A DNA stretch of 64,000 bases from IMG/VR virus record IMGVR_UViG_3300008265_000001, one strand, 5' to 3'. A program made the position numbers and the translations under genes. This document shows, one piece after another, positions 2,146 through 63,016 of the stretch (positions within the stretch are counted from its first letter, which is position 1; the number at the start of each line of letters is the position of its first letter). The notes beneath the pieces are model-generated. The model was not told the origin of the DNA. It worked only from the letters and a program-made list of their open reading frames with translations, and made no database searches. The stretch comes from a virus.

Positions 2146-2479
2146 AATATTTCTCTTCCCAGTATTGCTCTTTCTTTTCTGCTAAAGCTTGCAACTCAGC
2201 AGGTGATTTACCACTCTTTTTCTGCACAGTCACAAGGATAGTTTCGTGCGTTTCTAGGTGGTCTAGGCTGAACTCGATGTAGTTAGGCGCTTCCATCTCG
2301 TCAAGTAGCTCATGGAATGCTTCAGCCACGATAGGAACGATTTTTGACTTTAGTTTTAGGTCGATACTGTTGTCCTTGATTTGCATACTTTCGAGTGAGA
2401 TTTCGCCACAAATAGCTTGGCGAAGTTGGTCTTCCAGTTGTCTCACGTAGGGGAACAGTCTAAGAAAATGTCTAATCAT
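2120..2479 (-). CDS. hypothetical protein
   Basis: 119-aa ORF in a packed array. Confidence 0.6.
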   Translation of the reverse strand: MIRHFLRLFPYVRQLEDQLRQAICGEISLESMQIKDNSIDLKLKSKIVPIVAEAFHELLDEMEAPNYIEFSLDHLETHETILVTVQKKSGKSPAELQALAEKKEQYWEEKYYELLKGME

Positions 2480-2757
2480 ATTAACTCCATAGCTTTGTAA
2501 ACTTCTTGTGGAATATTTTCAGGCTGCAACCAACCTAAATTAAGGCAAACTCCGTAGTTATACCAATCACGACCGCAAAACTTTTCAAGATAGTACCAAC
2601 AACGTTTTACTGGTATGAAATCTTGTGCGTTCAGTATTTCTCGAACGCTGTAGTGAGGACAACTCTCTTTGATTGACATGATGAGTTTCAGTAAAATCAA
2701 CTCATCGTACTGATACCCCATTACCCTTGTTCGACAACAGTTTTTAGGTTTTCGCAT
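2476..2757 (-). CDS. hypothetical protein
   Basis: 93-aa ORF with a 4-nt overlap with its neighbour. Confidence 0.6.
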   Translation of the reverse strand: MRKPKNCCRTRVMGYQYDELILLKLIMSIKESCPHYSVREILNAQDFIPVKRCWYYLEKFCGRDWYNYGVCLNLGWLQPENIPQEVYKAMELI

Positions 2758-2978
2758 CAGATTGCCGCAAGTGCCTTAAGGAGTTCAGCGCGTTCAGTAG
2801 TTATATAAGTTCCACCCTCTTTAGGTAATTTAAATTCAGTATCAGCAACATCGTAATGCTTAGGTGTGACATCATAAATCCTAAATCTACCTTGCTCAGT
2901 AGTTGGGTGAATAGTGGAGATATGTTCAAGTACAATTACCGTACCGTTTCGTAATGTATATAAGTGTCTTGTGTTCAT
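2757..2978 (-). CDS. hypothetical protein
   Basis: 73-aa ORF with a 1-nt overlap with the downstream gene. Confidence 0.55.
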   Translation of the reverse strand: MNTRHLYTLRNGTVIVLEHISTIHPTTEQGRFRIYDVTPKHYDVADTEFKLPKEGGTYITTERAELLKALAAI

Positions 2979-3059
2979 GTGCTTCTCTCGTAATTAACTA
3001 TTTGATATTACTCACAACACTTATCCATGTCATCATCCCAATGGTAGAATAGTTACACC

Positions 3060-4832
3060 ATGAGCAGACCACCACGCAACGGCTATACGATAAACAGCGA
3101 TTTAGAGCTTTCGGCACTAGAGTCTTCATTATTACCTGAAAATACACCGCTAATCAACTTCGACCGCAAATGTTGGGGCGTTTACACGAACGTCGCCAGC
3201 AGCCTTAACGCATCATCTGGTTTCGAGTACATACCTCAGAACTCAATCGACGCATACACACTCACCTCAATCACCATTTCGACCGACACATACTCTCTTG
3301 ACCTCGCTGGCGCGACCCAATACATCAGTATCACCCTAGCAACCAACACGACCCTCACAATTCTCAATGCTGGCAAGTACACCAAATACTTCATCGAGTT
3401 GGTTCCAAATGGTCACATAATCAAGAATTTCACTGAACTTTTCGCGCTACCTAAGCAATACAGCCAAGCAACACTTCTCACAGCATATTTCGGCAAGCAA
3501 GTACTTGAACTACAATACATTAACAAACTTTACGCAAATATCAACTACTCCGACAACATCACTCCTGCTGGCGCAGTCGGTGCGGCAGAAAAAATAAATT
3601 GGGTAGCTCCTGCATCTGAAATTTTATATCTGGCGTTCGCATCTTCGGTCACGACGTATACAGGAAGCGGCATATCAAGCGTAAGTGCCACTGTAGGAAC
3701 TCCGAGTATCAGCAAGTCGCGCCTCTTACTTGGCTCCACTGGGCGGCTCGAAGCAACTAAGACCAGCGCACTAGATTTTGACGAAACTGATTTCACCATC
3801 TCCTTCTTTTCTGCCAAGACGAGCGTAGGCGAGTACGGTTGTATTCTAGGCAGCCACAAAGCGAGTAGCATAGGCTTTTATGTGGGTGTAGCGGCTGATA
3901 GCACCTTGTTTGCTGTCTTTGGTAGTAACGTACTTTCTTGTGCCTTACCAGACGATATCAAGGAGCATAGCGTCATCATTAATCGAATTGGGCGAGTCTA
4001 CAAAATATTTATAGATGGTATACTGAGCGCTCACCTCAAAGCAGCTAACAATTTCAACAACAACTCAACCGAGCCATTATGTATCGGCACTTTGAAGACT
4101 GCTACTGGAACACCCTCATGGACTTCACAAAGTTGGCAAGGATATCTGCGCCAGCTCACTATCAATACAGCAGCTAGCATTCCTTTTTCTGCCAATGATG
4201 TTCCACCAAAAGATACGTTAACTTCAACAACAGTCTTGCTGCTCAAATATAACGTCAATCACCTCGATTTTGCCCAGTACAGCCTCACAAGAAGTTTTAC
4301 GTCGAATGTTACGGTTCAACCACTCATTTCGTCAGGGAGGCTCAATAAGTACTCGCATATCGGCTATACAAACAGTAACTTGGAGATAACTGGCAATGTG
4401 ACGCTTGAAGCCAAGATATTCAATCCTATTGGCAACACTCGCGGAGCTATTATCGATGTTGAAGGTGGTTTTACGTGGGGCATCTATGACCTCAAGCTCA
4501 GAATCGTCTTTGGCAGCTTCACTTTGGATGGTGTGACTGATATTCCAGATAGTACAGTAGTTGATGTGTCTTTTGTAAAATCTGGTACAACTTGTTCGCT
4601 ATTCTTGAATGGAGTTCTTGAATCTACCAATACAACAAGCGAAGTGATGAATGCAAGCTCGTCAAGCTCGGAGTTCAGCATCAAACGTACTTTCACTCAA
4701 GATAGTGCGATAGCAAGTCTCAATACTTCATTGTTCCGCAGTAGGAGTTGGATTGAGATTGCACAGTTACGAGTCACCAAATCTGCGCGATACACTGGTG
4801 ACTATATTCCTGATGTTTTTTATGGTTCGTAA
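3060..4832 (+). CDS. structural/receptor-binding-type protein with two LamG (concanavalin-like) beta-sandwich-like segments
   Basis: 590 aa, Ser/Thr/Asn-rich. Segments DFDETDFTISFF...IINRIGRVYKIFIDGIL and VTLEAKIF...VSFVKSGTTCSLFLNGVL resemble LamG-fold repeats. Confidence 0.5.
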   Translation: MSRPPRNGYTINSDLELSALESSLLPENTPLINFDRKCWGVYTNVASSLNASSGFEYIPQNSIDAYTLTSITISTDTYSLDLAGATQYISITLATNTTLTILNAGKYTKYFIELVPNGHIIKNFTELFALPKQYSQATLLTAYFGKQVLELQYINKLYANINYSDNITPAGAVGAAEKINWVAPASEILYLAFASSVTTYTGSGISSVSATVGTPSISKSRLLLGSTGRLEATKTSALDFDETDFTISFFSAKTSVGEYGCILGSHKASSIGFYVGVAADSTLFAVFGSNVLSCALPDDIKEHSVIINRIGRVYKIFIDGILSAHLKAANNFNNNSTEPLCIGTLKTATGTPSWTSQSWQGYLRQLTINTAASIPFSANDVPPKDTLTSTTVLLLKYNVNHLDFAQYSLTRSFTSNVTVQPLISSGRLNKYSHIGYTNSNLEITGNVTLEAKIFNPIGNTRGAIIDVEGGFTWGIYDLKLRIVFGSFTLDGVTDIPDSTVVDVSFVKSGTTCSLFLNGVLESTNTTSEVMNASSSSSEFSIKRTFTQDSAIASLNTSLFRSRSWIEIAQLRVTKSARYTGDYIPDVFYGS

Positions 4833-5871: not shown

Positions 5872-6768
5872 CTAATTTATTTTCCATTTAATACTTAATT
5901 TATTTTCCATATCAAGTCTCCATGCCAAAGCATCTGCCCTACTAAAGAATGTGGGTGAGTTGTAATGCTTTTTATTAACGACAATTCTCGCTCTAAACTT
6001 TCCATTCCCGATATCATATACACCTTTACCAGAATTATCTCTTGCATTTAGTTTTTTATTTCTTATTAGTGTTTCTAGTTCTTTAATACTTCCCTCCCCA
6101 AACTTGTACACTTTTTCTGCCTCTAACTGTATAGCCAAAGCTTCTTCTCTTGTGGAATATGTTCCACAGCAAATTGTATTTTTATTAAGGTATATTCTTA
6201 CTTGCCATCTACCATCATCAAGTAATTTAATTCCTTTATTTGTCTGGATATTTTTATTTTTTTCTTTTATCTCCGATAAATATTTATAACTATCTCCCTC
6301 GGAAAATGTGCTAAATTTAGAAATTAAATTCTCTTTTTCTTTCAGTGCTTCTTCTTTTGTACAAAATGAGCCTACTCTTGCGGTTATACCTTTAAACTTA
6401 AGTCTTAACCTCCATTTATCATTTCTTTTATCTATGTGGCAGTTTATGTAGTATGACTCTCTTTCTGAAGGTCTAAAAACACTTTTGCAAATATTGTAGC
6501 AAAAATCCCAATTCTCAATACTGTCCAGATAAGTTTGTTCCAAATCTAGTAGCTTTTCTCTAGTAGATTCTTCAACAACAGTAAAATCAAAAACCTTTTC
6601 TCCGTATTTATTCCAAGCTTTTTGTAAATATTTGTTATCATGTATACCCTTTCTTAAATGTAATTTATGAGAGTTCCACCTAGTCCTTATACAAACTGAG
6701 CTGCCAACATAATACTTATTATTAGCAGTATTAGTAATAAAATAAATTCCTGATGTGTTCTTTTCCAT
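5872..6768 (-). CDS. GIY-YIG homing endonuclease with three AP2-like DNA-binding repeats
   Basis: GIYFITN...YYVGSS...R...H motif. There are three repeats of W(R/Q)(L/V/A)R...G(S/T)(F/Y)..(K/R)EEAL. Start set at the ATG at 6768. Confidence 0.8.
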   Translation of the reverse strand: MEKNTSGIYFITNTANNKYYVGSSVCIRTRWNSHKLHLRKGIHDNKYLQKAWNKYGEKVFDFTVVEESTREKLLDLEQTYLDSIENWDFCYNICKSVFRPSERESYYINCHIDKRNDKWRLRLKFKGITARVGSFCTKEEALKEKENLISKFSTFSEGDSYKYLSEIKEKNKNIQTNKGIKLLDDGRWQVRIYLNKNTICCGTYSTREEALAIQLEAEKVYKFGEGSIKELETLIRNKKLNARDNSGKGVYDIGNGKFRARIVVNKKHYNSPTFFSRADALAWRLDMENKLSIKWKIN

Positions 6769-6880
6769 AATCACTATTATAATTTTTTTTTTTTTCTTCG
6801 CTTTTTCAAGTAACTTTGCAATTATTGAGTTTACCTGTATCAACAATCTCATCTATGTGAAATCAGTTACGAGCTACTAG

Positions 6881-8017
6881 TTACTTTTTGCTGTCATATT
6901 CTGGGTTCATGACCTTGACCGACAAATCGTTTGAGTAAAGTGTACGAACTACAATACCTTCAATGACTCGACCAGCCTCTTTCTCTCTTTTAAAAACATC
7001 AGAAGCAAATGAAATAAGTTCATCGTAATTTCTAGGATGTAATTGAAAGAAAAGTCTTGCTGGAGTGTATTGGAGTTTTAGCTCATGACAAATAATTTCG
7101 AGATTGTGAGGTTGTCCATAATGGATTCGAGTTGCAAAACCGCTCGCCAAATCATCAACACCGAAAAGAATTAGTCCTTGCTTCAACTGAGCATGAGGAT
7201 TCAGCTTGTTACCACTTCCTTTCAAACCCTGACCATAGATTTCACCACGAAAAGCGAGTTCGACGTTGTGCTTTTTGCAGTATTCCATACCACGTTCGTA
7301 CAGACCAGAAGACTTAGCCAACTTGACCCAACTATCAGCAGTGTCGTCAGTGATTTTCTTTTCCAGTGAACGAGAACAGATACCAGTGTACCAGTTACCT
7401 TCGACATCCTTCTTGAAATACTCGGTAAAAGAGCTTCCATCAACTTTGATAGTGTATGCAACTTCTGCCCCACTCGCAAGAACCCGATTAATGTGAGATT
7501 TGAGGTTAGCGCAGTTTTCTTCATCTGTGGAGTACAGAAAAGAAGGTAGTGTGCCTCTAGTTAGTCCTGTAGCGCCTTTCTCTGGCTCTTCATACTTAGT
7601 AATGCCCAATGCTGCTGCAAGGTCTTCAGCCGCCAACAATTCGCTTGGAAGCTCATTTGTGTTGAGTAAGATACCGACAGAGTAAATTGGGTCAGAACTG
7701 TTCTCGAAACTGAAATTGAACTTGAGCGCTCGAATGCGATTGTTTTTGCCAAGTCGAGATTTGTTAGGGTCGCCGTTAGGGGCTGTGAAACTTGCAAACA
7801 GAGGTGAGTCGGGCAAACAGTAGTCGGGCTGAATGTAGACTGCCTTGGAACCTACTTGGTAGATGCCCTTTTGCGAGACGACATTATAGCCGCACTCGTC
7901 TCCATTACTGAAGTTGAGGTTGACAACTTGAATGGACGACGCTTCTTCGCCATTTTTGTAGATAGGGATGATGCGGGAGATTGTTACGATTTCGACAGGG
8001 GCAATGGTGTTGGTCAT
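6881..8017 (-). CDS. ATP-dependent RNA ligase (nucleotidyltransferase domain preceded by a ~170-aa N-terminal domain)
   Basis: Motif I IKVDGSS, motif III FRGEIYG, motif IV LFGVDD, motif V EGIVVR...KVMNPEY. Confidence 0.7.
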   Translation of the reverse strand: MTNTIAPVEIVTISRIIPIYKNGEEASSIQVVNLNFSNGDECGYNVVSQKGIYQVGSKAVYIQPDYCLPDSPLFASFTAPNGDPNKSRLGKNNRIRALKFNFSFENSSDPIYSVGILLNTNELPSELLAAEDLAAALGITKYEEPEKGATGLTRGTLPSFLYSTDEENCANLKSHINRVLASGAEVAYTIKVDGSSFTEYFKKDVEGNWYTGICSRSLEKKITDDTADSWVKLAKSSGLYERGMEYCKKHNVELAFRGEIYGQGLKGSGNKLNPHAQLKQGLILFGVDDLASGFATRIHYGQPHNLEIICHELKLQYTPARLFFQLHPRNYDELISFASDVFKREKEAGRVIEGIVVRTLYSNDLSVKVMNPEYDSKK

Positions 8018-10815: not shown

Positions 10816-11223
10816 TTATTCAGGAAATGCTGCGAAATCGTCATGTACAAGATTGATATTTTCAGTATCGCTTACAGTTGGTTCTGGTGCAATACTTCTT
10901 GGGGTAGGTTTTACCGTCTTTGTGGTAGCGGCTTTCCGAATACGCTTCTCTGTGACGACAGGAGGAGGTGTTTGTTGCTCTTGCACAGGCTCTGGCGCAG
11001 CTTCCAGTGCGCGGAATGCAGAAAGAGAGTTCTGTACCACGTTCAGACGATTTCGTAAGTGCCCTTCACGACTCTTGGCTTCGGCTATATCGAGTAGTTC
11101 ATTTATCAGGTGGGACTCTTCAGCTTCGAGCACAATTATTAAGGTATTGGCTTGTGGCAATACTTCTAGGTCTTGCTGCGTTTGTGGACGAGTGTAGCGC
11201 TTAGTGCTTGTTAGTAGTGACAT
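10816..11223 (-). CDS. hypothetical protein
   Basis: 135-aa ORF. Confidence 0.6.
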   Translation of the reverse strand: MSLLTSTKRYTRPQTQQDLEVLPQANTLIIVLEAEESHLINELLDIAEAKSREGHLRNRLNVVQNSLSAFRALEAAPEPVQEQQTPPPVVTEKRIRKAATTKTVKPTPRSIAPEPTVSDTENINLVHDDFAAFPE

Positions 11224-11815
11224 TTGTTGTTTTTGGTTTACGTGTTGTGCTGGTACGGCGATTCAAGTCCTCGTAAGGATTCTTGATTTTTTCGTTCTCT
11301 TGTTCGGCTAGCGCTTCGTTGAGCCAATCATACTGAGAGGCATCCATATCTTCATCATCATTGTAATGCGAATAGTCGAGGAAGTTATATCCTTTGCCAC
11401 TTTTCAGGTCGAAGCTGACCCAAAATTCGTCTAACGACTCAGCAGAAAAGAATGTTTGGGGCGACAGTAGGATAGCGCTGTGATGGTCAAGTCCGAACTC
11501 TTGACGAAACTTTGCCCCCTTTTTAGATTGGATAAACTCTTTGACGGCTTGGTAATCGAGCCATCCAAAAGTGAAGTATACAGCTACTTTTCTACCGTAG
11601 ATTTGTAGAATGGTGTTGTATGCAGCCAACTCCTCCCAAGTTGTTGCTTCGTTGAGGTCGAATCTGTCGCGCTTGAATTTCTCAACTGCTTTGGGCAAGT
11701 TAATATAGCACCAGTTGCGGAGCTTGTCGATGTCAAGGCGTTTTAGCTTGATTTGTGGGTAATCTAGTTGCCGAATGAGGCTGCTGACTCGAAGTCTAAT
11801 GTCATGTTTTACCAT
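11201..11815 (-). CDS. hypothetical protein
   Basis: 204-aa ORF. Confidence 0.65.
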   Translation of the reverse strand: MVKHDIRLRVSSLIRQLDYPQIKLKRLDIDKLRNWCYINLPKAVEKFKRDRFDLNEATTWEELAAYNTILQIYGRKVAVYFTFGWLDYQAVKEFIQSKKGAKFRQEFGLDHHSAILLSPQTFFSAESLDEFWVSFDLKSGKGYNFLDYSHYNDDEDMDASQYDWLNEALAEQENEKIKNPYEDLNRRTSTTRKPKTTNVTTNKH

Positions 11816-11992: not shown

Positions 11993-12931
11993 TTATAGAA
12001 GCTTAGGTTTGGTTAATACAGTTGGTTTAGGAATTTCACCTTCAATAGTGAAGTCAGCAGCGTTGAATTTTGGTGTGCCAAATGAATCTAGTTCACCAGA
12101 GTAGTTGTAGACCAGCTTTAGAGGCGGGTTCATGGGTGAATTATTGTTGCACGACCCTATAGGTTTATATTTTATAGTGCCGTTACCAAATTCAATAATC
12201 TGTTTAGCAGCTTCAATGTGAGATTCTTCGTTGTAAATATGAGCGTCACCAAATACCCAAGTGAGTGAGCCAACTTTTAAATTGCTGTGGAAAGCGAAGT
12301 AAGTAAGCAAAGCCCAGTATTGTACGATATTTGCCTGAAAACCAAGTAACATATCTTGACTTCTGGCATAATGTTTGATGTGCAATTCACCGTTTACAAC
12401 AAAGAACTGAAGTACTGTGGAATGGCAACAACTTGGGGTTTGAGGGTTATTGTTGGTCTTCGTAATGTTAGCCATCTCTCCTGTGTTCCAAGATGTCAGA
12501 ACTAAGCGGCGGGAGTGTTGGTGATTTTTTAAGCCGTCGAGAATGTAAGCGATTTGGTCAAAACCATCTAGGTCGTACTCATTCATCCCATGCTCATCTC
12601 TGCCATAGGTTGTAGTAGTTTGGTTACGAAATTGTTCAGCATACCCGTTTATGTAGTTGCCGTCCTTGTTAAGTTGTCCAGCCCACCACTTAGATAACTT
12701 CTCAGGGCATTTGAGGCTACCAGACATGAACCACTCCATCTCGGTCAGCGCGAGTTTCCATGCTGTCTTGCGGATAGTGATTAGCGGTAGAGAGTCAAAT
12801 GTTACGTTATCAAGAAAGGGATTGCAGTAGCACGAATGGTTACGTGTTTCGACCACGTTATTGAGTCTCAAAATGTCTTGCAGTAGAAAAGCGTAGGTGA
12901 GGTCGGCGGAAGTGTAGTTAGTTGTTGTCAT
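11993..12931 (-). CDS. divergent ThyA-family enzyme (thymidylate synthase or dUMP hydroxymethylase)
   Basis: Catalytic SCCH...LQFFV, RSQDMLLG, Asn in QANIVQY (dUMP-type specificity) and GDAHIYN. The N-terminal dRTG motif is not conserved. Confidence 0.6.
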   Translation of the reverse strand: MTTTNYTSADLTYAFLLQDILRLNNVVETRNHSCYCNPFLDNVTFDSLPLITIRKTAWKLALTEMEWFMSGSLKCPEKLSKWWAGQLNKDGNYINGYAEQFRNQTTTTYGRDEHGMNEYDLDGFDQIAYILDGLKNHQHSRRLVLTSWNTGEMANITKTNNNPQTPSCCHSTVLQFFVVNGELHIKHYARSQDMLLGFQANIVQYWALLTYFAFHSNLKVGSLTWVFGDAHIYNEESHIEAAKQIIEFGNGTIKYKPIGSCNNNSPMNPPLKLVYNYSGELDSFGTPKFNAADFTIEGEIPKPTVLTKPKLL

Positions 12932-13659: not shown

Positions 13660-14113
13660 TTCTTTTCTGCCTCTCTTTCAGTAATGTGCGTCGTGCTTCC
13701 CAGTGATTCATAATCCATCGGTATTTATCTGTAACGTCCTTCACGACACCTTTGAACACATAATAATGAACAAAAGGTAATTCAGATTTGGTAAACTCTT
13801 CAAGCCAATAAGGACTAGATTTGATTTTCAAGTCCATAGCCTTTTTGATTTTGGCTTGGAACTCTTCTTGTGGTACTTTTACTTGGGTTAACATCATCCC
13901 CAAATTCTTCGCATCAAAGCCTGACAAATGAAATAATTCAGAGGACTTTTCTTTGGTCGTTAAGTAATACCAGTATCCCTCTAAAGATTGGAATGTACCT
14001 TCAGGAAGTACAAGTTCATGTCTTGCAAAGTTCGTAAGAAATCTGCCAAGAGGAGTAGCACCTTTAGAATAGATATTAATGTGGGTCTTGCCGTCGAGTG
14101 TAGGGTCAATCAT
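13649..14113 (-). CDS. conserved phage protein, tandem paralog 2
   Basis: Paralog of 13165-13659. The track start is GTG at 14125. The ATG at 14113 (MIDPTLDGKTHIN) aligns with the paralog start. Confidence 0.65.
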   Translation of the reverse strand: MIDPTLDGKTHINIYSKGATPLGRFLTNFARHELVLPEGTFQSLEGYWYYLTTKEKSSELFHLSGFDAKNLGMMLTQVKVPQEEFQAKIKKAMDLKIKSSPYWLEEFTKSELPFVHYYVFKGVVKDVTDKYRWIMNHWEARRTLLKERQKRNGN

Positions 14114-14355: not shown

Positions 14356-15087
14356 TTAGACGTAGTTCGGTAAATTTTCGTTAGCTTGCTCGAAAAACGC
14401 TGGCATCCGAGATTTACGTGTTTCAACTAGCTCAGGGGCTACTCCACGATACAGTAGCGAATCACTTTGGCGAATCCAAAAATCCTTGCTAGCATGATTA
14501 AGGTTAGCTGCTGCGGTTACTTCACCAACCTTGTCCACCATCCAAGCGACAGTAGTTTTACGAAGACGGTCAAGATTAGCGGTTAAGTCGATACCCATAT
14601 CTTTGCAGAAAAGAGAATTGGTAACAACATGAATCTGTTCATCCATTGAGATGTCACTAGAAACGGTTCTAAGGGCGCTGTTACCTAGAAAACGTAGGAT
14701 AGGGAGCAGGACAAAAAATACAGAGCGCTCAAGCACCATAGCCTTGAGTACAGGATGTTCGGGAGCATTTACCCAAGCATTGACGATGGCGGCTGCTTCT
14801 TTGTCATAGTTCGGCAGTTTACCACCGAATGAGTCTGCGGCGAATTGCAGTGCTTGGTCATGGCGAATCTCGTCAACAATATTGCTTTCAAGAAGTTCGA
14901 GGCTATTTGCAGGGATTTCCTTCTTAGTAGCAGCTTCGATAAAGTTACCAACAGGGATTTCGAGCGCTCTTAGGGACAAGGCTCTGGCAAGTACATCTTC
15001 AGCCCCTTCCACTACGGGTTCATAAGTTGGGCGAACAGGTGTCCATTTGCGTTTTTTGGTGAGTAGGTCGGTGTAATTAGAAGTCAT
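14356..15087 (-). CDS. nrdB: ribonucleotide reductase small (beta) subunit, compact ferritin-like di-metal protein
   Basis: Two ExxH motifs (VDEIRHD, MDEQIHV) plus ERSVFF. The ATG at 15087 lies 5 nt after the alpha-subunit stop. Confidence 0.65.
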   Translation of the reverse strand: MTSNYTDLLTKKRKWTPVRPTYEPVVEGAEDVLARALSLRALEIPVGNFIEAATKKEIPANSLELLESNIVDEIRHDQALQFAADSFGGKLPNYDKEAAAIVNAWVNAPEHPVLKAMVLERSVFFVLLPILRFLGNSALRTVSSDISMDEQIHVVTNSLFCKDMGIDLTANLDRLRKTTVAWMVDKVGEVTAAANLNHASKDFWIRQSDSLLYRGVAPELVETRKSRMPAFFEQANENLPNYV

Positions 15088-15091: not shown

Positions 15092-16801
15092 TTATTCCGA
15101 GCAAGATGTGCAGTGTGTACGAGAAGATTCAGCAGATGGTTCAAAACCGAATAGAGAAAAGTCAATAATTTCGCCACTAGGGACAGCAAAAGAACTTTTA
15201 TTTTGTGTGTCGGGCATTACTGGTAAAGAATAGTAAAGCGACTTGATTGGACTATCGAGGAAATCTTGGATGAATTGTTGGTCGGCATAAATTATGTCGC
15301 TCCACCAGTTCATGCTAATCGAGTGACCAAGACCTGTTGAGTCCATCAAGCGTTGGAAATAGCTGTTCAACTTAAAGAAGGTTTCCCAGCCTACTTCGGC
15401 AGCGATTTCAGTCTTGGGGTGATAGTCGTAGCTCTTGACACCAAAAGTAGCAGAGTCTCGTTCTACTAAACGATTGATTGGAGGTGCAATTTCGGGGGCA
15501 GTCGTGTATCCTTCACGGTCTACATAGTTATAAGAGCAAGTTGCCGTCGGTGCGATAGTGAATGCGCGTTCCATTCCATAAAGTTTTGCAATTTCAGCTC
15601 CTTGGTGATACCCCGATACAAGATTTTCAACAATTTTTAAAGCTTTGGCATTTACTGTTGGTTCATAGTATAGAAAGGAGTCAGAAAAGAAGTACTCAAA
15701 AGCTTCTACAAACTCTTTGTAACTTACCTCTTCAATAGCCAGTAGATTAGCCAAACCAAGGAAGCCGTAACCAATCTGACGGTCTTCTTCTGGTTTAAGG
15801 TAAATTCCAGAGTCGCCAACACCTGTAATTGCGTGAAGTTGGCATAGGATTTCTACACCTTCTTTCATTACTTGAGGAATCTCTTCGATGGTACAAGCGC
15901 CAAGATTTCCGTGCATTAACAAACACGTTGCTTTGTGTTTTATTGCGATTTCAAGGCAAACTTGCAGATAGATTCGTTCGCCCTTAGCGTCGTACAACTT
16001 CTTAACAAGCCAAACATCACCACCTTGCATTTTCTCGATTAAGTCAGCGAGAATTTCAGGATGAGAAGTAATGAGATGTTCATCAACATTGAGAGCGCGT
16101 TTTGCCCATGAGACTTGTTCGCGAGTCATGTTTAAAAACTCGGAAACGTATGGGTAGTCATAGTCGTAATGGAGTGTGATTGCACCATTTTTGAAGATGC
16201 CTCCACGACGAAGTACCTGATTTAGAGTGCTGTAGACACCAGAAAGAGTGGTCAGTGAAGTATCGGAAATGTAAGCGTATAGTGCAGAATAAATCGCCTT
16301 GAAGCTGCTTGCACCAGAAGCGGTCAATCCTTGTGGGTTAGTGGTTCCTTTTTTGCGTAGGCGGCTCAAATCGACGACAACAAATTTATCGCCAGAGTAG
16401 TTAAGGAACGCCAACCAAGAGTTCTCAATTGACAAAATATTATCTTTACCTTGTTCCATCGAATCAGCAACAGAAATTACATACTCGTATGATTTGGGGG
16501 GTGTAGTTAATTCTTCGTAAGAGGCATCATAATCACCAGAGCAGTTCTCACCCAGATAAACGCGCCAGCTAAACTTACGATTGATTGGAACGATATTTTC
16601 AGGTAAATGAATCGCCACACCTGCCGCATTGCGTAACGCCTTCGAGGTGAAAATGAAGCTTTCGTCGATGTTGTTGTCGTCGCACACAAACACTGTACAG
16701 CTAACTGGTAAGCGTGAGCCGCTATTCTTCATCCAGTCTTTGATTCTGCCTGTCACAGCCTGTTTTTCCCATGTCGGGAACTTAGTAATATCTAAAGTCA
16801 C
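15092..16801 (-). CDS. nrdA: ribonucleotide reductase large (alpha) subunit, class I-like, no ATP-cone
   Basis: Active-site loop GNLGACTIEEI, YY pair in KSLYYSLP and C-terminal CTSC pair. GTG start. Confidence 0.75.
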   Translation of the reverse strand: MTLDITKFPTWEKQAVTGRIKDWMKNSGSRLPVSCTVFVCDDNNIDESFIFTSKALRNAAGVAIHLPENIVPINRKFSWRVYLGENCSGDYDASYEELTTPPKSYEYVISVADSMEQGKDNILSIENSWLAFLNYSGDKFVVVDLSRLRKKGTTNPQGLTASGASSFKAIYSALYAYISDTSLTTLSGVYSTLNQVLRRGGIFKNGAITLHYDYDYPYVSEFLNMTREQVSWAKRALNVDEHLITSHPEILADLIEKMQGGDVWLVKKLYDAKGERIYLQVCLEIAIKHKATCLLMHGNLGACTIEEIPQVMKEGVEILCQLHAITGVGDSGIYLKPEEDRQIGYGFLGLANLLAIEEVSYKEFVEAFEYFFSDSFLYYEPTVNAKALKIVENLVSGYHQGAEIAKLYGMERAFTIAPTATCSYNYVDREGYTTAPEIAPPINRLVERDSATFGVKSYDYHPKTEIAAEVGWETFFKLNSYFQRLMDSTGLGHSISMNWWSDIIYADQQFIQDFLDSPIKSLYYSLPVMPDTQNKSSFAVPSGEIIDFSLFGFEPSAESSRTHCTSCSE

Positions 16802-16865
16802 GTTGGATTTTCTCGTTTTAAGTTTTACAATTCTAGCATCTAAGCTTTCTTTTCTGCAAGCATTT

Positions 16866-18364: not shown

Positions 18365-18414
18365 GGGTTTGTAGGTAGTATAATTGTTGTAAATAATAAC
18401 ACAGAAAAGAGAAT

Positions 18415-18837
18415 ATGCAACACTTTGCAAACTTTGAGCTAAGCCCAGAGCAAAAAAGAACTGCTGATAGTCTGAACTACCTTAGACAAAATGACCCAGA
18501 AGAATTTAATAGGGTAAAAACTGCTGGGCAAGCCGTCAGAAAAAGAAATCAGAATGTAAATGTGCCGATTATCCAAAAACAAGTAGCTGCTGGCGGAGAT
18601 GCGAAGGAGTTGTTTGCAAATAACCGCCAAAACTACAATCAGACGTTTACGAAAGCTACTAATGCAAATCAAGCGGCTGGGGCTATGGGCAAAATTGGCA
18701 ACACAGCTAAGCGTTGGGGTGGTAAGGTTGCTGGGCTTGGAGGAGCCGCAGTTACAGCCTCGATGCTGCTTCCTATGGCATCTTCCCTGCTTCCTTTTGG
18801 TAAAGGTCAGACTAAAGAAGAAAACCAACCCTATTAG
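18415..18837 (+). CDS. MQHFANF-leader protein with Gly/Ala-rich hydrophobic C-terminus
   Basis: 140 aa, on the opposite strand to its neighbours. A TATAAT-like box lies at ~18378. The N-terminus MQHFANF is shared with 60601, 62157 and 63943. Confidence 0.6.
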   Translation: MQHFANFELSPEQKRTADSLNYLRQNDPEEFNRVKTAGQAVRKRNQNVNVPIIQKQVAAGGDAKELFANNRQNYNQTFTKATNANQAAGAMGKIGNTAKRWGGKVAGLGGAAVTASMLLPMASSLLPFGKGQTKEENQPY

Positions 18838-35436: not shown

Positions 35437-35492
35437 GACAGTTTTAGATTAATTTTGATAGTTTAATTAGATTACAGAAAAGAATGTCGAAA

Positions 35493-35504: not shown

Positions 35505-35680
35505 AAGTTAGGTATAGACAATTGCGCCAGTATTTAGGTCGATGATGCGGCGCTTAATACGAGGCTCAAAGTAGCACATAACTTCAAAAAGTCTGGTTAG
35601 TCTAGCTAGACTTTCCTCTCCACGATGCCACATTAAAAGCCAACGATTATGTTTGGCAGAAAAGAATTGTATTTGATACA

Positions 35681-45540: not shown

Positions 45541-45547
45541 GTTGCAC

Positions 45548-46666: not shown

Positions 46667-47101
46667 TTAGTCTGAACAATTTTTTTTCACTTTGGCAGGT
46701 TTAGTGTCCCAATCAATAAGAAGAATGTCATACAACTCAGCTTCGCCATCATCGTCAGCAACTAGCGGCAACTCACCAACAACACCTTCCCACACTTCTT
46801 TTTCTGCCTCTGCTTTAGCAAAAGTCTCTTGCACCAGACGAACTCTGCGCCGAATCTCTGCAAGTGGGTTAGCATTTGTTTTATCGGAGTTAAAGGAATG
46901 CTGAAAGTCTATGGCTAGTGTCCTTGCGCCATCAGAGAATTTGACTACGAAACCAGAAGAGAAAATGCCACTACGAAAATCTTCGGTAGCTTCAATAGGC
47001 GATGTTAGTAAGTCAGATGATTCACGATTGAACTGTTTAGCCTGACCATCGATTTGTAGATAGAAATTGTCACCAAACTTTTCGACTCGAACTCTAGACA
47101 T
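46667..47101 (-). CDS. hypothetical protein
   Basis: Start set at the ATG at 47101 (MSRVRVEKF), which is preceded by AGGAG. Confidence 0.6.
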   Translation of the reverse strand: MSRVRVEKFGDNFYLQIDGQAKQFNRESSDLLTSPIEATEDFRSGIFSSGFVVKFSDGARTLAIDFQHSFNSDKTNANPLAEIRRRVRLVQETFAKAEAEKEVWEGVVGELPLVADDDGEAELYDILLIDWDTKPAKVKKNCSD

Positions 47102-48599: not shown

Positions 48600-48944
48600 T
48601 TATTTAATCCTGAGTGAATAGATGCAGAAAAGAAAAGCGAGACTATTTTTCGTCGTTCTTGTCAGATGGTGTGAGTAAACAAATAGTGACAGCACCAACC
48701 CAAACAACAGCGTAGAAAGTCCAGATAGGGAAAAACATCATGCAGGAATACCTAGTTAGAGATTATTAAAAGTTTGCTTGGAGCCATCGTTAGATGGTGT
48801 TGCCCTTTTTAGGGGCGTTCGCATAAGTTTCACCAGACCTATTCAGAGTTAAGTTCCTGCGAGTTGTCTTTTTACCAGTTTTGAAAATCTTTAAAGGCTC
48901 TGCCTGTATATCGGAGGAGGTCGGGCTAAGGCATAAGTCATGAT

Positions 48945-49163: not shown

Positions 49164-49642
49164 CGGCTGTACCTATCTTTCTGTAGTGTTGAGTGAGTAT
49201 CATTCTTGTCGTTCAAGTACCAAGTGACCAATCGTACATATCGGTAATCGAGTCGGTCAGCCTGAAGTCTACCTCCCAATACCAGTATGATATCGGTATC
49301 AGGGGATGTTGGTAAATCTACCCGCAGAGCTAGTTTAGTCACCTCGTAGTTGACATCCAAGACAATCTCAAAGATGTCTTCATGAGACGCTTGCGCTAGA
49401 AGGGCAGAAAAGAGGGTGAGGTTACGAATGGAATGTTCATCGGCGTAGCTGACGTTAAAGCATTGACTGTTCTTGTAGACTCCATACTCTGACCAGACGT
49501 AGCTGAAATGCTTGTGTTTGGCATGATTGGAGATGATGAGAGACTTCTGTGCGTGAGTGAGTAGCGCGAGTTGCTGCGCGATGATGTATGGGTCGCGGAA
49601 CTTTTGTGGTGCGAGTAGGCGATGGTGCAAGGATGTAGTCAT
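49160..49642 (-). CDS. hypothetical protein
   Basis: 160-aa ORF with a 4-nt overlap with the paralog gene. Confidence 0.6.
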   Translation of the reverse strand: MTTSLHHRLLAPQKFRDPYIIAQQLALLTHAQKSLIISNHAKHKHFSYVWSEYGVYKNSQCFNVSYADEHSIRNLTLFSALLAQASHEDIFEIVLDVNYEVTKLALRVDLPTSPDTDIILVLGGRLQADRLDYRYVRLVTWYLNDKNDTHSTLQKDRYSR

Positions 49643-49929
49643 TACAGTGTCACCCCAAATCTATTTTCTGCAAATTCGAGCGTAGCGTCAACATCGGTAA
49701 ACACTTTCTCAATCAAGCGTCCTGAATGTCTGTAGAGCAGCACCAATTCTTTTTCTGTGTGCAAGAGGATGAACTCTTTTACTGCGAGAGGTCTACCAGC
49801 GATTTTAGACGGCTTGTAGCCCGTTGCAAGCTTGCCGAAGGTACATTCTAGGCTTTGACGCAAGAACAAGTCGTGGAGGCTGAAATCTTGAAGTGTGAGA
49901 GGGTTTTTGGGTAGTGTGGCGAGAGTCAT
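49642..49929 (-). CDS. hypothetical protein
   Basis: 95 aa, with an AGGAG SD upstream. Confidence 0.6.
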   Translation of the reverse strand: MTLATLPKNPLTLQDFSLHDLFLRQSLECTFGKLATGYKPSKIAGRPLAVKEFILLHTEKELVLLYRHSGRLIEKVFTDVDATLEFAENRFGVTL

Positions 49930-49992: not shown

Positions 49993-50589
49993 CTAAAATA
50001 AATCGCTTGCTACCCGTTCATCCCAAGTAGCTGAAAGGATTTGTGAACCAGTGTAGAGGTAGTAGTGGGAGCTAGGCGCACCGTAGAGTCTGCCAGAGTA
50101 ACGAGTGCGGAAGACTACATTCTTTTCTGCTACTGCAATCAACTGTTGACCAGAACCCATGTAGCCAGCAGCACCTTGAGCAATACGTCCCTCTGCAAGA
50201 ATCTCACAAGGGAAAGGAAGGAACTCGATATTATCTGGGTCGTAGTCTGGCACACAGTCGCCTGTGTGAGAATTACTGCCACGAAATCCGATTGAGGTAC
50301 GAAAAGTAATTAGACATTTATCATTTGTCAACGTATTGGCAGCTTCGATAAGCTTTTGACCACCTTTTTGAGTTTTGCCTAGAGATACATGATTGATACT
50401 TACTTGCCCTTCAGCATCGAATTTAGCACGACTGGAGGTGTTTAGTTCAACAGGCAGAAAGGAGAGTTGTCTACCTCGACCTTCTTCCCCTACTTGAACG
50501 ACTGGGATTTTGATACCACTTGATAATTCACGGGCTTGGACAAGAATACCTTCAGTCGGTTTTCCGTTTTCAATTGTGTATGTTTTCAC
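49993..50589 (-). CDS. hypothetical protein
   Basis: 198-aa ORF. Confidence 0.65.
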   Translation of the reverse strand: MKTYTIENGKPTEGILVQARELSSGIKIPVVQVGEEGRGRQLSFLPVELNTSSRAKFDAEGQVSINHVSLGKTQKGGQKLIEAANTLTNDKCLITFRTSIGFRGSNSHTGDCVPDYDPDNIEFLPFPCEILAEGRIAQGAAGYMGSGQQLIAVAEKNVVFRTRYSGRLYGAPSSHYYLYTGSQILSATWDERVASDLF

Positions 50590-50678: not shown

Positions 50679-51122
50679 TTATTGACATTGCCTAGCTGGA
50701 TAGTTAGGGGAATGGTGATTTTCTATATGAGTCCAACTTTTACCAAGTTTAATAGTAGAAATTACACTTGAATTTATTTTGTACATCTTAGCTATAGAGG
50801 CTTGAGTAAACCCTAAATGCAACAATTCAAAAATTGTGGGTATATCAAAATCTGTAAGTTTTGACATTGAATTTTTTTCGCCTTTTACCCTCCCTTTTCT
50901 AACCTTATCTTTGCAATTGTCTGAAACACTGCCAAGAAACAAATGTTCAGTATTTGTGCAAGCAGGGTTATCACACTTATGGCAAACAAGCATACCTTTG
51001 GGAATTTCGCCATTAGCTAAAGTCCAAGATAAACGGTGCGCTCTCCATTCTTTACCTTGATACCTTGCCCTTCCATAACCATCCCTATCTTTAATACCCT
51101 CGAAATTTATACAATCGTCCAT
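50679..51122 (-). CDS. HNH endonuclease with C-terminal HTH-like segment
   Basis: HRLSW...CHKCDNPACTNTEHLFLGSVSDN. Confidence 0.75.
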   Translation of the reverse strand: MDDCINFEGIKDRDGYGRARYQGKEWRAHRLSWTLANGEIPKGMLVCHKCDNPACTNTEHLFLGSVSDNCKDKVRKGRVKGEKNSMSKLTDFDIPTIFELLHLGFTQASIAKMYKINSSVISTIKLGKSWTHIENHHSPNYPARQCQ

Positions 51123-51890: not shown

Positions 51891-52477
51891 GATGCTTCTA
51901 GCTCCTGTTGTAGTCTTGTGTACTCTTGGAAGTGATACTGAGCCGCTACTTGTTTTTTAGTGCGCTCAAGTTGCTCTTGTTGTTTTTGTTTTGTTTCGTA
52001 CTGTGTTGCATCGAACTCAAAATTGAATAACGTTGCAATGTATTGTGTTGAATCAATCAATGCGTGAATGCTTTCATAGCTTATATTTTTTTCTATAGCT
52101 TTGTCAAGTACTTTTTGAGCTTGTTTGAAGATGTTTATAGGATTTACATCTTTAGGCGTACATCTAATTGGGTAGGTAACTAAGCGCTCAACCCAAAGAA
52201 ATTCAGCAGTCGGAGCAAGAGCAAATTCGTTATAAGGTACGTGAGGGATGTTTTTCTCTTCTGCCATCAGGCGAAGCGAATGAACTCGATTGCGATTGCA
52301 TACTTGAGAGCTACCGCAGTCGATGAATAAGATATCTTTTTGCCAAGCTGCTATCATTTCGCCCGAAGCATAGAGATAGCCTTCAGAATCGATTTGTAAG
52401 CCACTGGAAGAAAGGTCTTTACTTCGTAACAGAAAAGAATCGATGAGTTGTTCTTTTGAGAGATTAGTTTTTGCCAT
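51887..52477 (-). CDS. hypothetical protein
   Basis: 196-aa ORF with a 4-nt overlap. Confidence 0.6.
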   Translation of the reverse strand: MAKTNLSKEQLIDSFLLRSKDLSSSGLQIDSEGYLYASGEMIAAWQKDILFIDCGSSQVCNRNRVHSLRLMAEEKNIPHVPYNEFALAPTAEFLWVERLVTYPIRCTPKDVNPINIFKQAQKVLDKAIEKNISYESIHALIDSTQYIATLFNFEFDATQYETKQKQQEQLERTKKQVAAQYHFQEYTRLQQELEAS

Positions 52478-54051: not shown

Positions 54052-54501
54052 TTAGGGGATATCTTTTGGTGATGTAATAATTACTTCACAGTTATCGTCA
54101 ATTTCATGAATATCGATATACTCATTATTGAAAACTAGGATAGGCTTTTCTTGAATATCTGAGTTGTCTAGAATCTCAAGATGAGCATCGAAGACGCAAG
54201 CTAAATCAGAGCTAGGGTCACAAGTCCAATTAATAGACGCATTGTATTCTTCAAGAAGCTTACGCAAAGCCGTCTTGAAATTCTTTTTTCTGATATTTAG
54301 CATTTCTTTATTCCAAAACTTGATTTGTATATCGTTAATTTCGACTTGTTGGGCGACAGTTCCTTTGTAGCCCCAAAGTTTGCCCCCTTTTCTTTGGCAG
54401 ACAGGACACTCTAGATAAGCGTAAGGCATAGTTCGATTCACAAAAACATCTATGCCTCTCTGCACAATTGGTTCAGTGTTGCAACAATGGGTTATAGACA
54501 T
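54052..54501 (-). CDS. hypothetical Cys-containing protein
   Basis: 149 aa. CxxC at LECPVCQRKG. Paralogous segment with 53025-53486. Confidence 0.6.
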   Translation of the reverse strand: MSITHCCNTEPIVQRGIDVFVNRTMPYAYLECPVCQRKGGKLWGYKGTVAQQVEINDIQIKFWNKEMLNIRKKNFKTALRKLLEEYNASINWTCDPSSDLACVFDAHLEILDNSDIQEKPILVFNNEYIDIHEIDDNCEVIITSPKDIP

Positions 54502-54963: not shown

Positions 54964-55482
54964 CTAGAATACGATTTTTTGGGCTGCAAATTCCCCTGTG
55001 TAATGCCTTACAGCAGCTTGTAAGACAATCTCAGAAAAGAGAATTTTGTCCAAGATAGGGAATATCTCAAGCGTAGGGACGTTTTCATGTTTCCACAAGT
55101 AATCGAACAAATCATCTTTTGCTTTCTGGTAAGCTTCAAATTCACTATGCAAGCTAAACCCAAGTTCAGAACGTCCAGACTCAAAATGATGTCTGTAATC
55201 ATGGACAGCACGAAACTTCTGGTTGGTAGCTTCATCCCACAAAGGATGCTCATTGAATAGCGAGAAAATGAATACATGATTGTTTTGAGCGATGTCATCA
55301 AACAGCGCTTTACTGTTTTCATAGCTGTCTGCTTGTTCAGTTAACTCAACTTTCAAGCCCTTGGCAACAATGGCATCATATTCATGATTAATCCATTTTG
55401 TCAAAATGTCCCCTGTAAGTTCAGGCAAGTTTGGGGTTTGGTCAACACCGTCTAGATATCTTTGTGCTAATGCTTCTAACAT
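54964..55482 (-). CDS. hypothetical protein
   Basis: 172-aa ORF with a GGAG SD. Confidence 0.6.
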   Translation of the reverse strand: MLEALAQRYLDGVDQTPNLPELTGDILTKWINHEYDAIVAKGLKVELTEQADSYENSKALFDDIAQNNHVFIFSLFNEHPLWDEATNQKFRAVHDYRHHFESGRSELGFSLHSEFEAYQKAKDDLFDYLWKHENVPTLEIFPILDKILFSEIVLQAAVRHYTGEFAAQKIVF

Positions 55483-61737: not shown

Positions 61738-61785
61738 TGGCAAGCGAATACTGGAACAATAATGACCAACTAGAGGAGTCTATCA

Positions 61786-62133
61786 GTGAATAAGCTCCCA
61801 TTAGAAAAAGAAACGAGAAATAAAGTTGCGAATTTCTTTAAATCTCAAGGTTACGTTGTGCAGATGGAATACAAGACCCCCTACGGTTTTATAGATATCC
61901 TTCTCAAAGAATATAAACCAAGCGGTGAAGTCATTTATCACCTAATTGAATGTAAAAGAAAAAATGACAGCACAGCCATCAAAAATAGTATAGGACAACT
62001 CATCTGCTACGCTAAGCACTTCCCTAAATCTCAAGTGCAATTATATTTTTGCACCAGTTGTAAAAAACCTCTGTCTCAGGAATCACTCAGAATAATGCAA
62101 GCAAACCCCGACATCCTCTATAAGGTATTCTAG
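61786..62133 (+). CDS. minimal Mrr-cat / PD-(D/E)XK nuclease-like protein, paralog 1
   Basis: GTG start with a GAGGAG SD. GFIDILLKEY...HLIECKR...GQL..YA....LYFCTS. About 50% identical by eye to 63006-63362. Confidence 0.6.
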   Translation: MNKLPLEKETRNKVANFFKSQGYVVQMEYKTPYGFIDILLKEYKPSGEVIYHLIECKRKNDSTAIKNSIGQLICYAKHFPKSQVQLYFCTSCKKPLSQESLRIMQANPDILYKVF

Positions 62134-62156
62134 TAATATACAGAATAAATAAAATC

Positions 62157-62903
62157 ATGCAACATTTTGCCAATTTTATCCGCCTCAGTGACAAGAACAT
62201 CAATGCAGCCCGAAAGAAAATCACAGAGTTGCAACCTAACGGCTGGACAGAACTAAGCGGCTTCAAATCCGACAACACACCATCAGCACTGAAGCTACAC
62301 GATACACTTCAGCATAGGCTCATTGACAAACCCATATTCAAAGCAGCAACAGGCATAGACCCCAATACACTATTTCCTAGTGGCTCACCTCAACAAGCTA
62401 CCAAGATGATGCCGCTAGTTCAACAATCTCCCAGCATTTCAAGAGACAGGCGCAATGTCCTTAACGAAACTATCGAGAAGATGGTAGATGTAGGTACTTT
62501 CCCCAGCTACCGCAGCAGATTACCCGTAGATACTATGGAGTTACTACCTAACACCAAGTTCGACGCTGTGATGCCTTACATACGCAAGAAAGCTAAGCCA
62601 GCAGATAGGTTAGCTGCTGAGGCTATTAGCATGACATTCCTACCAACCAGCAGCAATGAAGAGTTTCGCAACATCTATCTCGACACAGCACAACGCGATA
62701 GCAGAATACGTGCAGCAATGAAAGAGCGACTACCCAAACTAGCGACCGAGAAATTGCAGCCTAATGCCAGTGCTGGTCAACGCTTAAGGGCTAAGCTCGA
62801 AGACAGAAAAAATTACAGCAAGCAATTTGACTGGACTAGAGACTTGAGCGCAAGGGAAGACCGACTCAACCAATATAGACAAACAGGACTAATGCCAAGA
62901 TGA
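62157..62903 (+). CDS. MQHFANF-leader protein
   Basis: 248-aa ORF. The N-terminus is MQHFANF...NINAARKKI. Confidence 0.6.
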   Translation: MQHFANFIRLSDKNINAARKKITELQPNGWTELSGFKSDNTPSALKLHDTLQHRLIDKPIFKAATGIDPNTLFPSGSPQQATKMMPLVQQSPSISRDRRNVLNETIEKMVDVGTFPSYRSRLPVDTMELLPNTKFDAVMPYIRKKAKPADRLAAEAISMTFLPTSSNEEFRNIYLDTAQRDSRIRAAMKERLPKLATEKLQPNASAGQRLRAKLEDRKNYSKQFDWTRDLSAREDRLNQYRQTGLMPR

Positions 62904-63016
62904 TGCACTTTACTTCTTTTCTGCCAACGAACGTAGTGAGTGACTTCAGCAACAGCGCTCGTAAGTCATTCACACGACAAAAGCAAGCCACACTACTTGG
63001 TCAAAATGTCAAGTAA
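62900..63016 (+). CDS. 38-aa mini-ORF: interrupted or truncated MQHF leader
   Basis: MMHFTSFLPTNVVSDFSNSARKSFTRQKQATLLGQNVK. Its tail matches residues 6-24 of the 60601 protein. It has an ATGA overlap upstream and overlaps the next start. Confidence 0.35.
   Translation: MMHFTSFLPTNVVSDFSNSARKSFTRQKQATLLGQNVK

Follow-up and report, generated by a model that had tools for sequence, protein, structure and literature searches.

Several kinds of short, asymmetric DNA word accumulate in genomes far beyond chance expectation, and the closest documented precedent for the word described here comes from phage tf. There, 14 nicks all fall inside an over-represented asymmetric 9-mer, TACT/RTGMC, and at similar positions the relatives of tf carry a sister word, TACTATGAC, that differs by one base (PMC3517423). 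Here, we analyse a 64 kb stretch of viral DNA, IMG/VR record IMGVR_UViG_3300008265_000001 (hereafter the window, taken at its whole length), in which the asymmetric 9-11 nt word TC-T(4-6)-CTG recurs on both strands. By sequence comparison the window is a cyanophage related to the Pseudanabaena phages Pam2 and PA-SR01, whose matches to it bear out the first-pass annotation of this DNA as phage. Pam2 and PA-SR01 are the only isolates with the window's replication module, and the window corresponds to their early/replication arm. The word is selected at the DNA level, is strand-symmetric and is specific to this phage lineage.

Comparison with described words

The nick words of tf/LUZ24-like, phiKMV-like and T5 phages share several properties with the cyanophage word. 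They are asymmetric, about 9 nt long, over-represented, located in genes, partly conserved in position and accompanied by sister words. However, they occupy one strand and number 4-14 copies per genome, whereas the cyanophage word occupies both strands at about 65 copies per genome and has a flexible T-run.

Primase sites offer a second parallel. The window encodes a zinc-ribbon/TOPRIM primase beside a helicase, each word closes with CTG or CTA, a purine is predicted at the start of the primer, information extends along the direction of primer synthesis, and such a signal is strand-specific and needed on both strands. But primase sites specify 3-5 bases and show weak enrichment at most (1.2-2 times in T7), against 9-11 bases and ∼20-fold enrichment here. 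The T7 gp4 primase, for example, recognizes 5′-GTC-3′ in GGGTC and TGGTC contexts. In a T7 genome that we ranked by pentamer, without control for coding bias, GGGTC, the strongest known primase word, was 5th of 1024 on the bottom strand (55 versus 26.9 expected) and GTGTC 13th on the top strand (43 versus 22.9 expected).

Bacterial words are similar in other ways. The DNA uptake sequence of Neisseria and the uptake signal sequence of the Pasteurellaceae are asymmetric, 9-12 nt long, present on both strands at one per 1-2 kb and randomly spaced, with coding copies in tolerant frames. Unlike the cyanophage word, which is viral and absent from host-type DNA, they reside in the competent bacterium that reads them. 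Chi, the signal of RecBCD and AddAB, is likewise a short, asymmetric, over-represented word read on a single strand, and a RecB-family nuclease gene lies beside the primase gene here. Chi is nevertheless a feature of host genomes with a strong replication orientation skew, and the cyanophage word shows neither property. The stoperators of cluster A mycobacteriophages are asymmetric 13-bp sites with 25-35 scattered copies, some of them genic, and a phage-encoded reader. They differ in keeping one orientation to transcription, in being mostly intergenic and in belonging to temperate phages with a repressor; the word studied here is randomly oriented and mostly coding. Finally, HIP1 (GCGATCGC) is a highly iterated short word from the same biological setting, but it is palindromic and host-owned.

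In its statistics the word resembles an uptake sequence, and in being private to phages, with variants between lineages, it resembles a nick word of the tf type. It fits no tested family fully, as it fails the one-strandedness of nick words, the 3-5 nt specificity of primase sites and the host residence or skew of Chi and uptake sequences. It is best described as a selected, phage-lineage-specific family of recognition words. The PA-SR01 paper, whose abstract describes that phage as lytic, and the phylogenomics paper on Pan1-5 make no mention of such a motif, and literature searches on the word itself returned unrelated papers only.

Abundance and anatomy of the word

The first-pass annotation listed 19 coordinates for CTTTTCTGC/GCAGAAAAG. 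Every one of them is an exact match, and three further copies had been overlooked (11442 and 30535 on the minus strand, 23170 on the plus strand). The true total is therefore 22, compared with 1.07 expected from dinucleotide-preserving shuffles (shuffle maximum 4). The variants that it reported with another T-run length are also present: CTTTTTCTGC at 4183, 6111, 22613, 37264 and 46798, with one more at 2216, and GGCAGAAAG at 8559, 46191, 50453 and 53714, with one more at 40495. An unbiased k-mer census places the best-defined core one base to the left of CTTTTCTGC, at TCTTTTCTG. This 9-mer occurs 33 times in the window, 14 times on the plus and 19 times on the minus strand, versus 1.45 expected from an order-3 Markov model. 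Together, the forms with four, five and six Ts (T4, T5 and T6) make up 41 sites.

The word comprises nine invariant positions and a set of flanking preferences. Every single substitution of TCTTTTCTG occurs at background in the order-3 Markov comparison. T-run lengths of 4, 5 and 6 are each 10-23 times over expectation in the same comparison, whereas the T3 form is only about 3 times enriched. T or C precedes the word, and its final G is usually followed by a C and then by C or A. G is all but missing from the 4-5 nt on the 5′ side and from the 2 nt on the 3′ side. Because this exclusion is seen separately in sense, antisense and intergenic copies, it is a property of the DNA signal and not of a peptide. 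No hairpin or longer conserved context was found around the copies in the window.

Selection on the nucleotide word

A codon-preserving shuffle, which keeps each protein sequence and each gene's codon usage, had been named beforehand as a check on the signal. With greedy open reading frame calls used for frames and shuffles throughout, it does not reproduce the count: 27 copies of TCTTTTCTG lie inside genes, compared with 2.2-3.0 after shuffling (maximum 10). Coding copies occur in sense and antisense orientation and in several frames, of which the favoured ones encode common peptides (..T-TTT-TCT-G.. as F-S and.CA-GAA-AA. as E-K). In coding copies of every T-run length, the reading frame is fixed by the TTTTCTG end. 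The claim that 12 of 15 AEK tripeptides are spelled GCA-GAA-AAR is exact, although Ala is encoded by GCA only 32% of the time and Glu by GAA 63% (binomial P = 1e-6). Frames, codon shuffle and AEK spelling all bear out the original proposal that selection acts on the nucleotide word rather than on the peptide. The dinucleotide, Markov and codon-preserving nulls together reject a coding or compositional artefact.

Comparison with the two isolates leads to the same view. Where alignable, the window is about 79% identical in nucleotide sequence to Pam2 and PA-SR01. Orthologous word sites are intact in 14/25 cases for Pam2 and 13/23 for PA-SR01, against 22-25% for matched purine- or pyrimidine-rich 9-mers, so that the word is kept about 2.5 times more often. 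At orthologous sites, the core is 87-88% identical and the flanks 78-79% (P about 1e-3 to 3e-4). There are also clear cases of lineage-specific gain and loss. The excess of intact sites, combined with these gains and losses, indicates purifying selection with turnover.

Distribution along the genomes

All site positions given here rest on exact matches. The T4 form (TCTTTTCTG) is intact in both Pam2 and PA-SR01 at seven places, 3805-3813, 26513-26521 and 31317-31325 on the plus strand and 7535-7543, 37846-37854, 40612-40620 and 49405-49413 on the minus strand; at 25035-25043 (minus), both relatives have an A6 form at the same place. Three plus-strand copies are lineage-specific: 30119-30127, which is absent at the orthologous place in the relatives, 44961-44969 and 50121-50129. 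Intergenic copies stand at 16848-16856 and 62915-62923 on the plus strand and at 35475-35483, 44348-44356 and 48625-48633 on the minus strand, the last about 25 nt upstream of a start codon. One minus-strand copy, 14606-14614, falls outside the greedy gene calls. The remaining T4 copies lie at 2173-2181, 13661-13669, 23169-23177, 33852-33860, 37462-37470 and 41392-41400 (plus) and at 11443-11451, 15682-15690, 18402-18410, 30536-30544, 35657-35665, 36394-36402, 42575-42583, 46330-46338, 52430-52438 and 55032-55040 (minus). The T5 form (TCTTTTTCTG) occupies 2215-2224, 22612-22621, 37263-37272, 46797-46806 and 49748-49757 on the plus strand and 18537-18546 on the minus strand. The T6 form occurs at 54282-54292 (plus) and 21398-21408 (minus).

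Two of the intergenic copies, those at 44348 and 62915, are embedded in a longer repeat of ∼35 nt found at 44330-44356 (minus) and 62915-62941 (plus), which reads TTCTTTTCTGC-(A/C)-(C/A)-ACGAACG-(G/T)-AGTGAGT. This intergenic pair probably has an additional role, possibly a regulatory one.

The copies show no polarity of any kind that we could measure. Plus and minus strands carry 20/21 copies in the window, 36/30 in Pam2 and 35/30 in PA-SR01, and sense and antisense copies number 80/71 when pooled. Runs tests along the complete genomes found no polarity switch. These results confirm the earlier impression that strand, transcription and position leave no imprint on the word, an absence that argues against Chi-, KOPS- and promoter-type signals. 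Equal sense and antisense counts reject a promoter, terminator or other transcription signal, and the lack of a switch along the genomes rejects a replication-polarity signal. Spacing is Poisson-like, with about one site per 1.5-2 kb; on a single strand there are gaps of 13-24 kb, and their regularity does not exceed that of random placement. Such spacing, with up to 24 kb between neighbours on one strand, rejects priming sites that are obligatory and evenly spaced. The nick model predicts that close sites on opposite strands should be avoided, and no such avoidance was seen; in Pam2 and PA-SR01, pairs lie 60 nt apart. Finally, word sites show no association with mosaic or alignment breakpoints between the window and its relatives, and a role as a mosaic or recombination boundary signal is rejected on this basis.

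Phage lineages and host-type DNA

The word is enriched in the complete genomes of Pam2 and PA-SR01, the relatives in which the first-pass annotation had proposed to look for it. TCTTTTCTG is the top 9-mer genome-wide in both (38 and 36 copies, respectively). Four IMG/VR contigs of 116-146 kb, with helicases at 49-70% identity to that of the window, likewise have it as their top 9-mer, and the clade members with this property number seven. A subclade at 61% primase identity prefers longer T-runs, TTTTTCTG.

A wider family of 75-146 kb contigs was reached through a helicase search started from a divergent short contig, and six of these contigs were sampled around the helicase gene, at about 21 kb each. 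The family covers roughly 40 contigs, among them Logan SRR35386017_453399 (146 kb), SRR19603258_2630346 (108 kb) and SRR34092473_100891 (104 kb) and JGI Ga0480370_0000065 (75 kb), the last from a lineage without the word. In four of the six, at GC contents of 27, 33, 36 and 48%, a sister word, TTTTCTAAC, is the most over-represented 9-mer, with observed/expected counts of 16/0.7, 17/0.5, 7/0.5 and 7/0.2 (14-35 times). The sister word occurs on both strands, in sense and antisense orientation, and survives codon shuffles. Two further lineages have the shorter TTTTCTA, at 15/4.7 and 17/4.5. The two 9-mers are mutually exclusive between lineages, and cyanobacterial DNA contains each at no more than background level. 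Both are built on TTTTCT, to which the window clade adds 5′ TC and 3′ G-C-C/A and the distant clade adds 3′ A-A-C. One lineage, L113, has no DNA-level word; a diverged analogue was rejected there, as its pyrimidine words are one-stranded, Glu-coding repeats. A metagenome scan and part of the IMG/VR scans for relatives added almost nothing.

In one lineage with the sister word, a pilin-like protein (L109, 21296-21725) gives a faint match to ComP_DUS that is probably fortuitous. ComP is the Neisseria pilin that binds the uptake sequence.

Host-type DNA lacks the enrichment. Across 80 diverse cyanobacterial loci (1.17 Mb), the word occurs 12 times, or 0.66 per 64 kb, which is background. The 250 kb of plasmids from the freshwater strain Pseudanabaena sp. 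ABRG5-3, which is not the phage host, contain 4 copies versus 4.7 expected. Within these plasmids and loci, a host-imposed signal is rejected, all being at background. The chromosome of the actual host is CP101416 (PMC9837993). The same plasmid DNA holds 259 copies of HIP1, about one per kb, and the window holds zero. With about 0.4 copies expected in the window from a rough composition estimate, this zero is not significant alone; clearly, however, the phage has not acquired its host's iterated word. In a separate observation, a related phage-like contig binned as Chroococcidiopsis (L111) is rich in CGATCG words.

Three other phages with hosts deposited as 'Pseudanabaena sp.', Pam3, Pam4 and Pam5, contain zero copies of the word, a result that is uninformative at their 63-74% GC. 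The reported GC content of a Pseudanabaena genome is 43%, and Alphaproteobacteria were co-cultured with a Pseudanabaena strain (PMC9837993). The host assignments of these three phages may deserve a second look.

Candidate readers

The facts above call for a reader that works in either orientation at any position, gains from many copies and co-evolves with its site. The word is very probably a recognition signal for a protein encoded by the phage lineage. Proteins common to the window and the distant loci are limited to an adjacent nuclease-primase-helicase triad, ribonucleotide reductase and one uncharacterized protein (11201-11815). All of them are also present in the wordless L113.

The triad lies on the minus strand. 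The candidate reader within it is a DnaG/T7 gp4-type primase (26412-27389), annotated as a DNA primase by PHROG, with a Cys4 zinc ribbon and EGEK and DND motifs that we read as TOPRIM. These motifs are invariant in all 12 lineages. A structure model of the protein has a predicted local distance difference test score (pLDDT) of 79.6, and each of the 15 best PDB matches to it is a DnaG or T7 gp4 primase; motifs and model both assign it to the zinc-ribbon/TOPRIM class. Its partner is a DnaB/RepA-like replicative helicase (24775-26439; AAA_25/DnaB_C by Pfam), the marker used to find related lineages. The third member (27386-28372), a PHROG exonuclease, is a predicted RecB-family PD-(D/E)XK single-strand DNA nuclease of the MGME1/Cas4/AddB-like kind. 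It has an invariant D...DxK...QxxxY signature, and in the PDB the structure modelled for it (pLDDT 85.9) resembles MGME1, Cas4 and the nuclease domains of AddAB and AdnAB.

Other enzymes that act on DNA fare poorly as readers. The family-A DNA polymerase (855 aa; 20205-22772, minus strand) gave no detectable homologue in either Pam2 or PA-SR01 (the best tblastn match had an E of about 1), and it was rejected since the word is identical in those phages. The helicase adjacent to it is 94% identical to that of Pam2, and homologues of the polymerase at 55-70% identity occur in other clade members, contigs L099 and L106. From these sequence comparisons, the replicative polymerase seems to have been exchanged for a non-orthologous one inside a tight phage clade. 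Thymidylate synthase has also been swapped, being of the ThyA type in the window and Pam2 and of the ThyX type in PA-SR01.

Five homing-type endonuclease genes (GIY-YIG, HNH and T5orf172/DUF723) are located at 5872-6852, 18844-20016, 23440-24042, 32213-32926 and 50679-51122. The Pam2 annotation lists no equivalent of at least the gene at 23440-24042, in keeping with active homing within the clade. As readers these enzymes are unlikely, because at least this one lacks a Pam2 counterpart, yet the word is clade-wide. Of the functions first proposed for the word, a nick site, a priming signal and a protein-binding site are retained, while a homing endonuclease target is unlikely and a link to recombination breakpoints was not found.

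A possible primase start signal and its alternatives

Tentatively, we favour a reading in which the DnaG/T7 gp4-type primase encoded by the phage prefers to start primers at the word. One ground for this is that the nuclease-primase-helicase cassette is the only positive association found. We infer both the primase as reader and every priming step that follows. The word would be read one strand at a time by a phage-encoded protein, and selection would hold its density high. Behind the DnaB-like helicase, the exposed single strand would present 5′-...TC-TTTT-CT-G-C-C-3′. The zinc-ribbon domain of the primase might then read the 3′ end of the word, its lineage-variable part (G-C-C here and A-A-C in the distant relatives). 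Synthesis would start opposite the T of CTG (or CTA), with the 3′ base left uncopied, and the invariant TTTTCT core would be copied into a purine-only primer, pppAGAAAA(GA). Such a primase should favour templates with TCTTTTCTGCC over those in which a single G has been changed to A or a single C to T.

Several features of the word agree with this scheme. The DnaG of E. coli initiates at the trinucleotide CTG and that of S. aureus at CTA. DnaG and T7-type primases leave a 'cryptic' base at the 3′ end of the site, and their primers begin with a purine. Words ending in CTG and CTA, with such a cryptic base, would therefore both predict the same primer start, pppAGAAAA; by analogy with the known primases, the word ends are compatible with pppAG primer starts, which is a matter of compatibility only. 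Information extends farther on the 5′ flank than on the 3′ flank, which matches the direction of primase travel. Equal use of both strands is as expected of a signal read on the unwound strand, if forks travel in both directions. A T-run of variable length also seems to sit better with a template that is copied, or a single strand that is read, than with a duplex that is recognized rigidly.

A number of points weigh against a primase signal. To our knowledge, no primase needs 9-11 specified bases, 3-5 being usual, and the known primase words of T7 are 1.2-2 times over-represented versus about 20 times here. T to C changes within the word are not tolerated, so the constraint exceeds that of a pyrimidine-only template. 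Since the long per-strand gaps are random, the word cannot be the sole Okazaki start signal. L113 has the same cassette and an intact primase, yet no word. The cassette association may simply reflect shared ancestry, and, with about 21 kb sampled per distant lineage, another conserved gene could encode the reader. Moreover, the only documented function of over-represented asymmetric 9-mers in lytic phages is site-specific nicking (PMC3517423).

That precedent gives the first alternative, in which a phage nickase cuts one strand inside the word and the packaged DNA has localized interruptions on both strands, perhaps as entry points for replication or recombination. Here too the 9-mer is sharp, with sister words and positional conservation as in tf; random spacing with long gaps poses no problem, and the wordless L113 would simply have lost the nickase. 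Nick sites are a close rival to the primase signal, though still doubtful. The nicks of tf, LUZ24-like, phiKMV-like and T5-like phages are all one-stranded (PMC3517423), whereas the strands are used equally here, and sites on opposite strands may lie close together. A search of the window and of the ∼21 kb sampled from each distant lineage gave no conserved candidate for a nickase. At least one endonuclease gene, that at 23440-24042, is without a counterpart in the Pam2 annotation, and the conserved cassette nuclease was rejected as a nickase, its modelled fold being of the MGME1/RecB-type single-strand nucleases. The T4-T6 tolerance would also be odd for a nickase.

Alternatively, the word could be bound by a phage-encoded protein that recognizes duplex DNA and acts as an architectural or regulatory factor or as a reader of a 'self' marker, the last telling phage from host DNA during host-DNA breakdown or packaging. 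In favour are the density and additivity of the word, its indifference to orientation and position, its absence from host-type DNA and the purifying selection on its sites, and the lineage-specific variants fit co-evolution of protein and site. The window encodes many small proteins without a characterized function and, at 45064-45579, one that PHROG annotates as 'DNA binding protein'. However, the window clade and the distant loci share no candidate beyond the triad, ribonucleotide reductase and the single uncharacterized protein. A rigid duplex reader is not expected to take T4, T5 and T6 equally, and the sites show neither a palindromic or dimeric arrangement nor clustering. We regard duplex binding as unlikely on balance, but as a close rival to the primase signal. 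A likeness to the cyanobacterial DnaA box, TTTTCCACA, was set aside, as the positions that differ are those that DnaA reads.

A Chi-like attenuator is decidedly improbable. Here, the single-stranded word would switch off a RecB-family nuclease, that of the phage cassette or one of the host, and so spare phage ends while DNA without the word is broken down. The modelled fold of the cassette nuclease belongs to the RecB/AddB/Cas4 family, some members of which read short single-strand sequences. A circularly permuted genome has ends anywhere, so both orientations would be useful, and absence from host-type DNA fits a phage-private signal. Yet known Chi recognition needs the large helicase-like scaffold of RecC or AddB and not a 330-residue nuclease. 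A host-encoded reader predicts enrichment in the host, which is not seen in the plasmids, and L113 keeps the nuclease without the word.

Still less probable is molecular drive, in which biased recombination or mismatch correction turns near-matches into the word with no function at each site. Such drive has reportedly been proposed for uptake sequences and for cyanobacterial HIP1. The pattern is indeed that of uptake sequences, being strand-symmetric and randomly spaced, with copies in the frames that tolerate them best. The Erf/Sak annealing proteins, the DprA-like protein and the many homing endonucleases suggest that recombination is frequent. However, one-off variants are not depleted (about 35 observed versus about 31 expected); nor are the sites associated with mosaic breakpoints. 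A sequence-specific reader would still be required, so that drive changes the reason for accumulation and not the mechanism.

A host-imposed or compositional origin (a host Chi, uptake or restriction-related word, or codon or oligonucleotide bias) has next to no probability left: although the word is pyrimidine-rich, codes for the common peptides F-S and E-K and sits in an AT-rich genome, codon-preserving and Markov nulls fall short of the count by an order of magnitude, the Pseudanabaena plasmids and the 80 cyanobacterial loci, where HIP1 is dominant, show background levels only, and the same architecture is found in phages at GC 27% to 48%.

Other features of the window

Rfam matches a single RNA family in the window, a permuted tmRNA of the two-piece type (RF04321, 62.6 bits) at 31988-32191 on the minus strand (31897-32223 by ARAGORN); the non-coding RNA locus that the first-pass annotation had placed near 37264 is without Rfam support. 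ARAGORN predicts a tag peptide of cyanobacterial style, VNNIVSFSRKATPVAA. The tmRNA gene directly adjoins the GIY-YIG/HNH homing endonuclease gene at 32213-32926.

The window also co-encodes a ThyA-family enzyme, a weak P-mevalo_kinase match and a dUTPase-like protein (11993-12931, 22773-23447 and 28317-28985). The P-mevalo_kinase match is below cutoff, and its Pam2 counterpart is annotated as a deoxynucleotide monophosphate kinase. The combination of ThyA, a nucleotide kinase and a dUTPase-like protein is often tied to the replacement of a pyrimidine by a modified base. DNA modification, if present in this phage, could interact with the T-rich recognition word.

Implications

What the word means for these phages depends on its reader. 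A primase signal would make this the first primase with a long, genome-shaping recognition sequence and would provide a handle on lagging-strand organization in a large siphophage. Nick sites would extend the 'localized nick' phenomenon from the one-stranded cases of three phage groups to a two-stranded, dense form in cyanophages. A bolder idea, which we think rather unlikely, is that these 75-146 kb, mostly uncultured cyanophages use a private 9-11 nt word (TC-T4-6-CTG, TTTTTCTG or TTTTCTAAC) as a replication identity code. Priming or nuclease sparing would then occur only on word-bearing DNA, and host DNA would be ignored or destroyed. Word and reader would co-evolve as a sequence-encoded self/non-self system in a virus, with a primase or RecB-family nuclease of unprecedented specificity at its centre.

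With Pam2, PA-SR01 and their host strains in culture, the question is open to ordinary experiments. In the meantime, the word family provides a computable signature for an uncultured, bloom-relevant group of cyanophages, and it shows the co-evolution of a DNA word with its reader.

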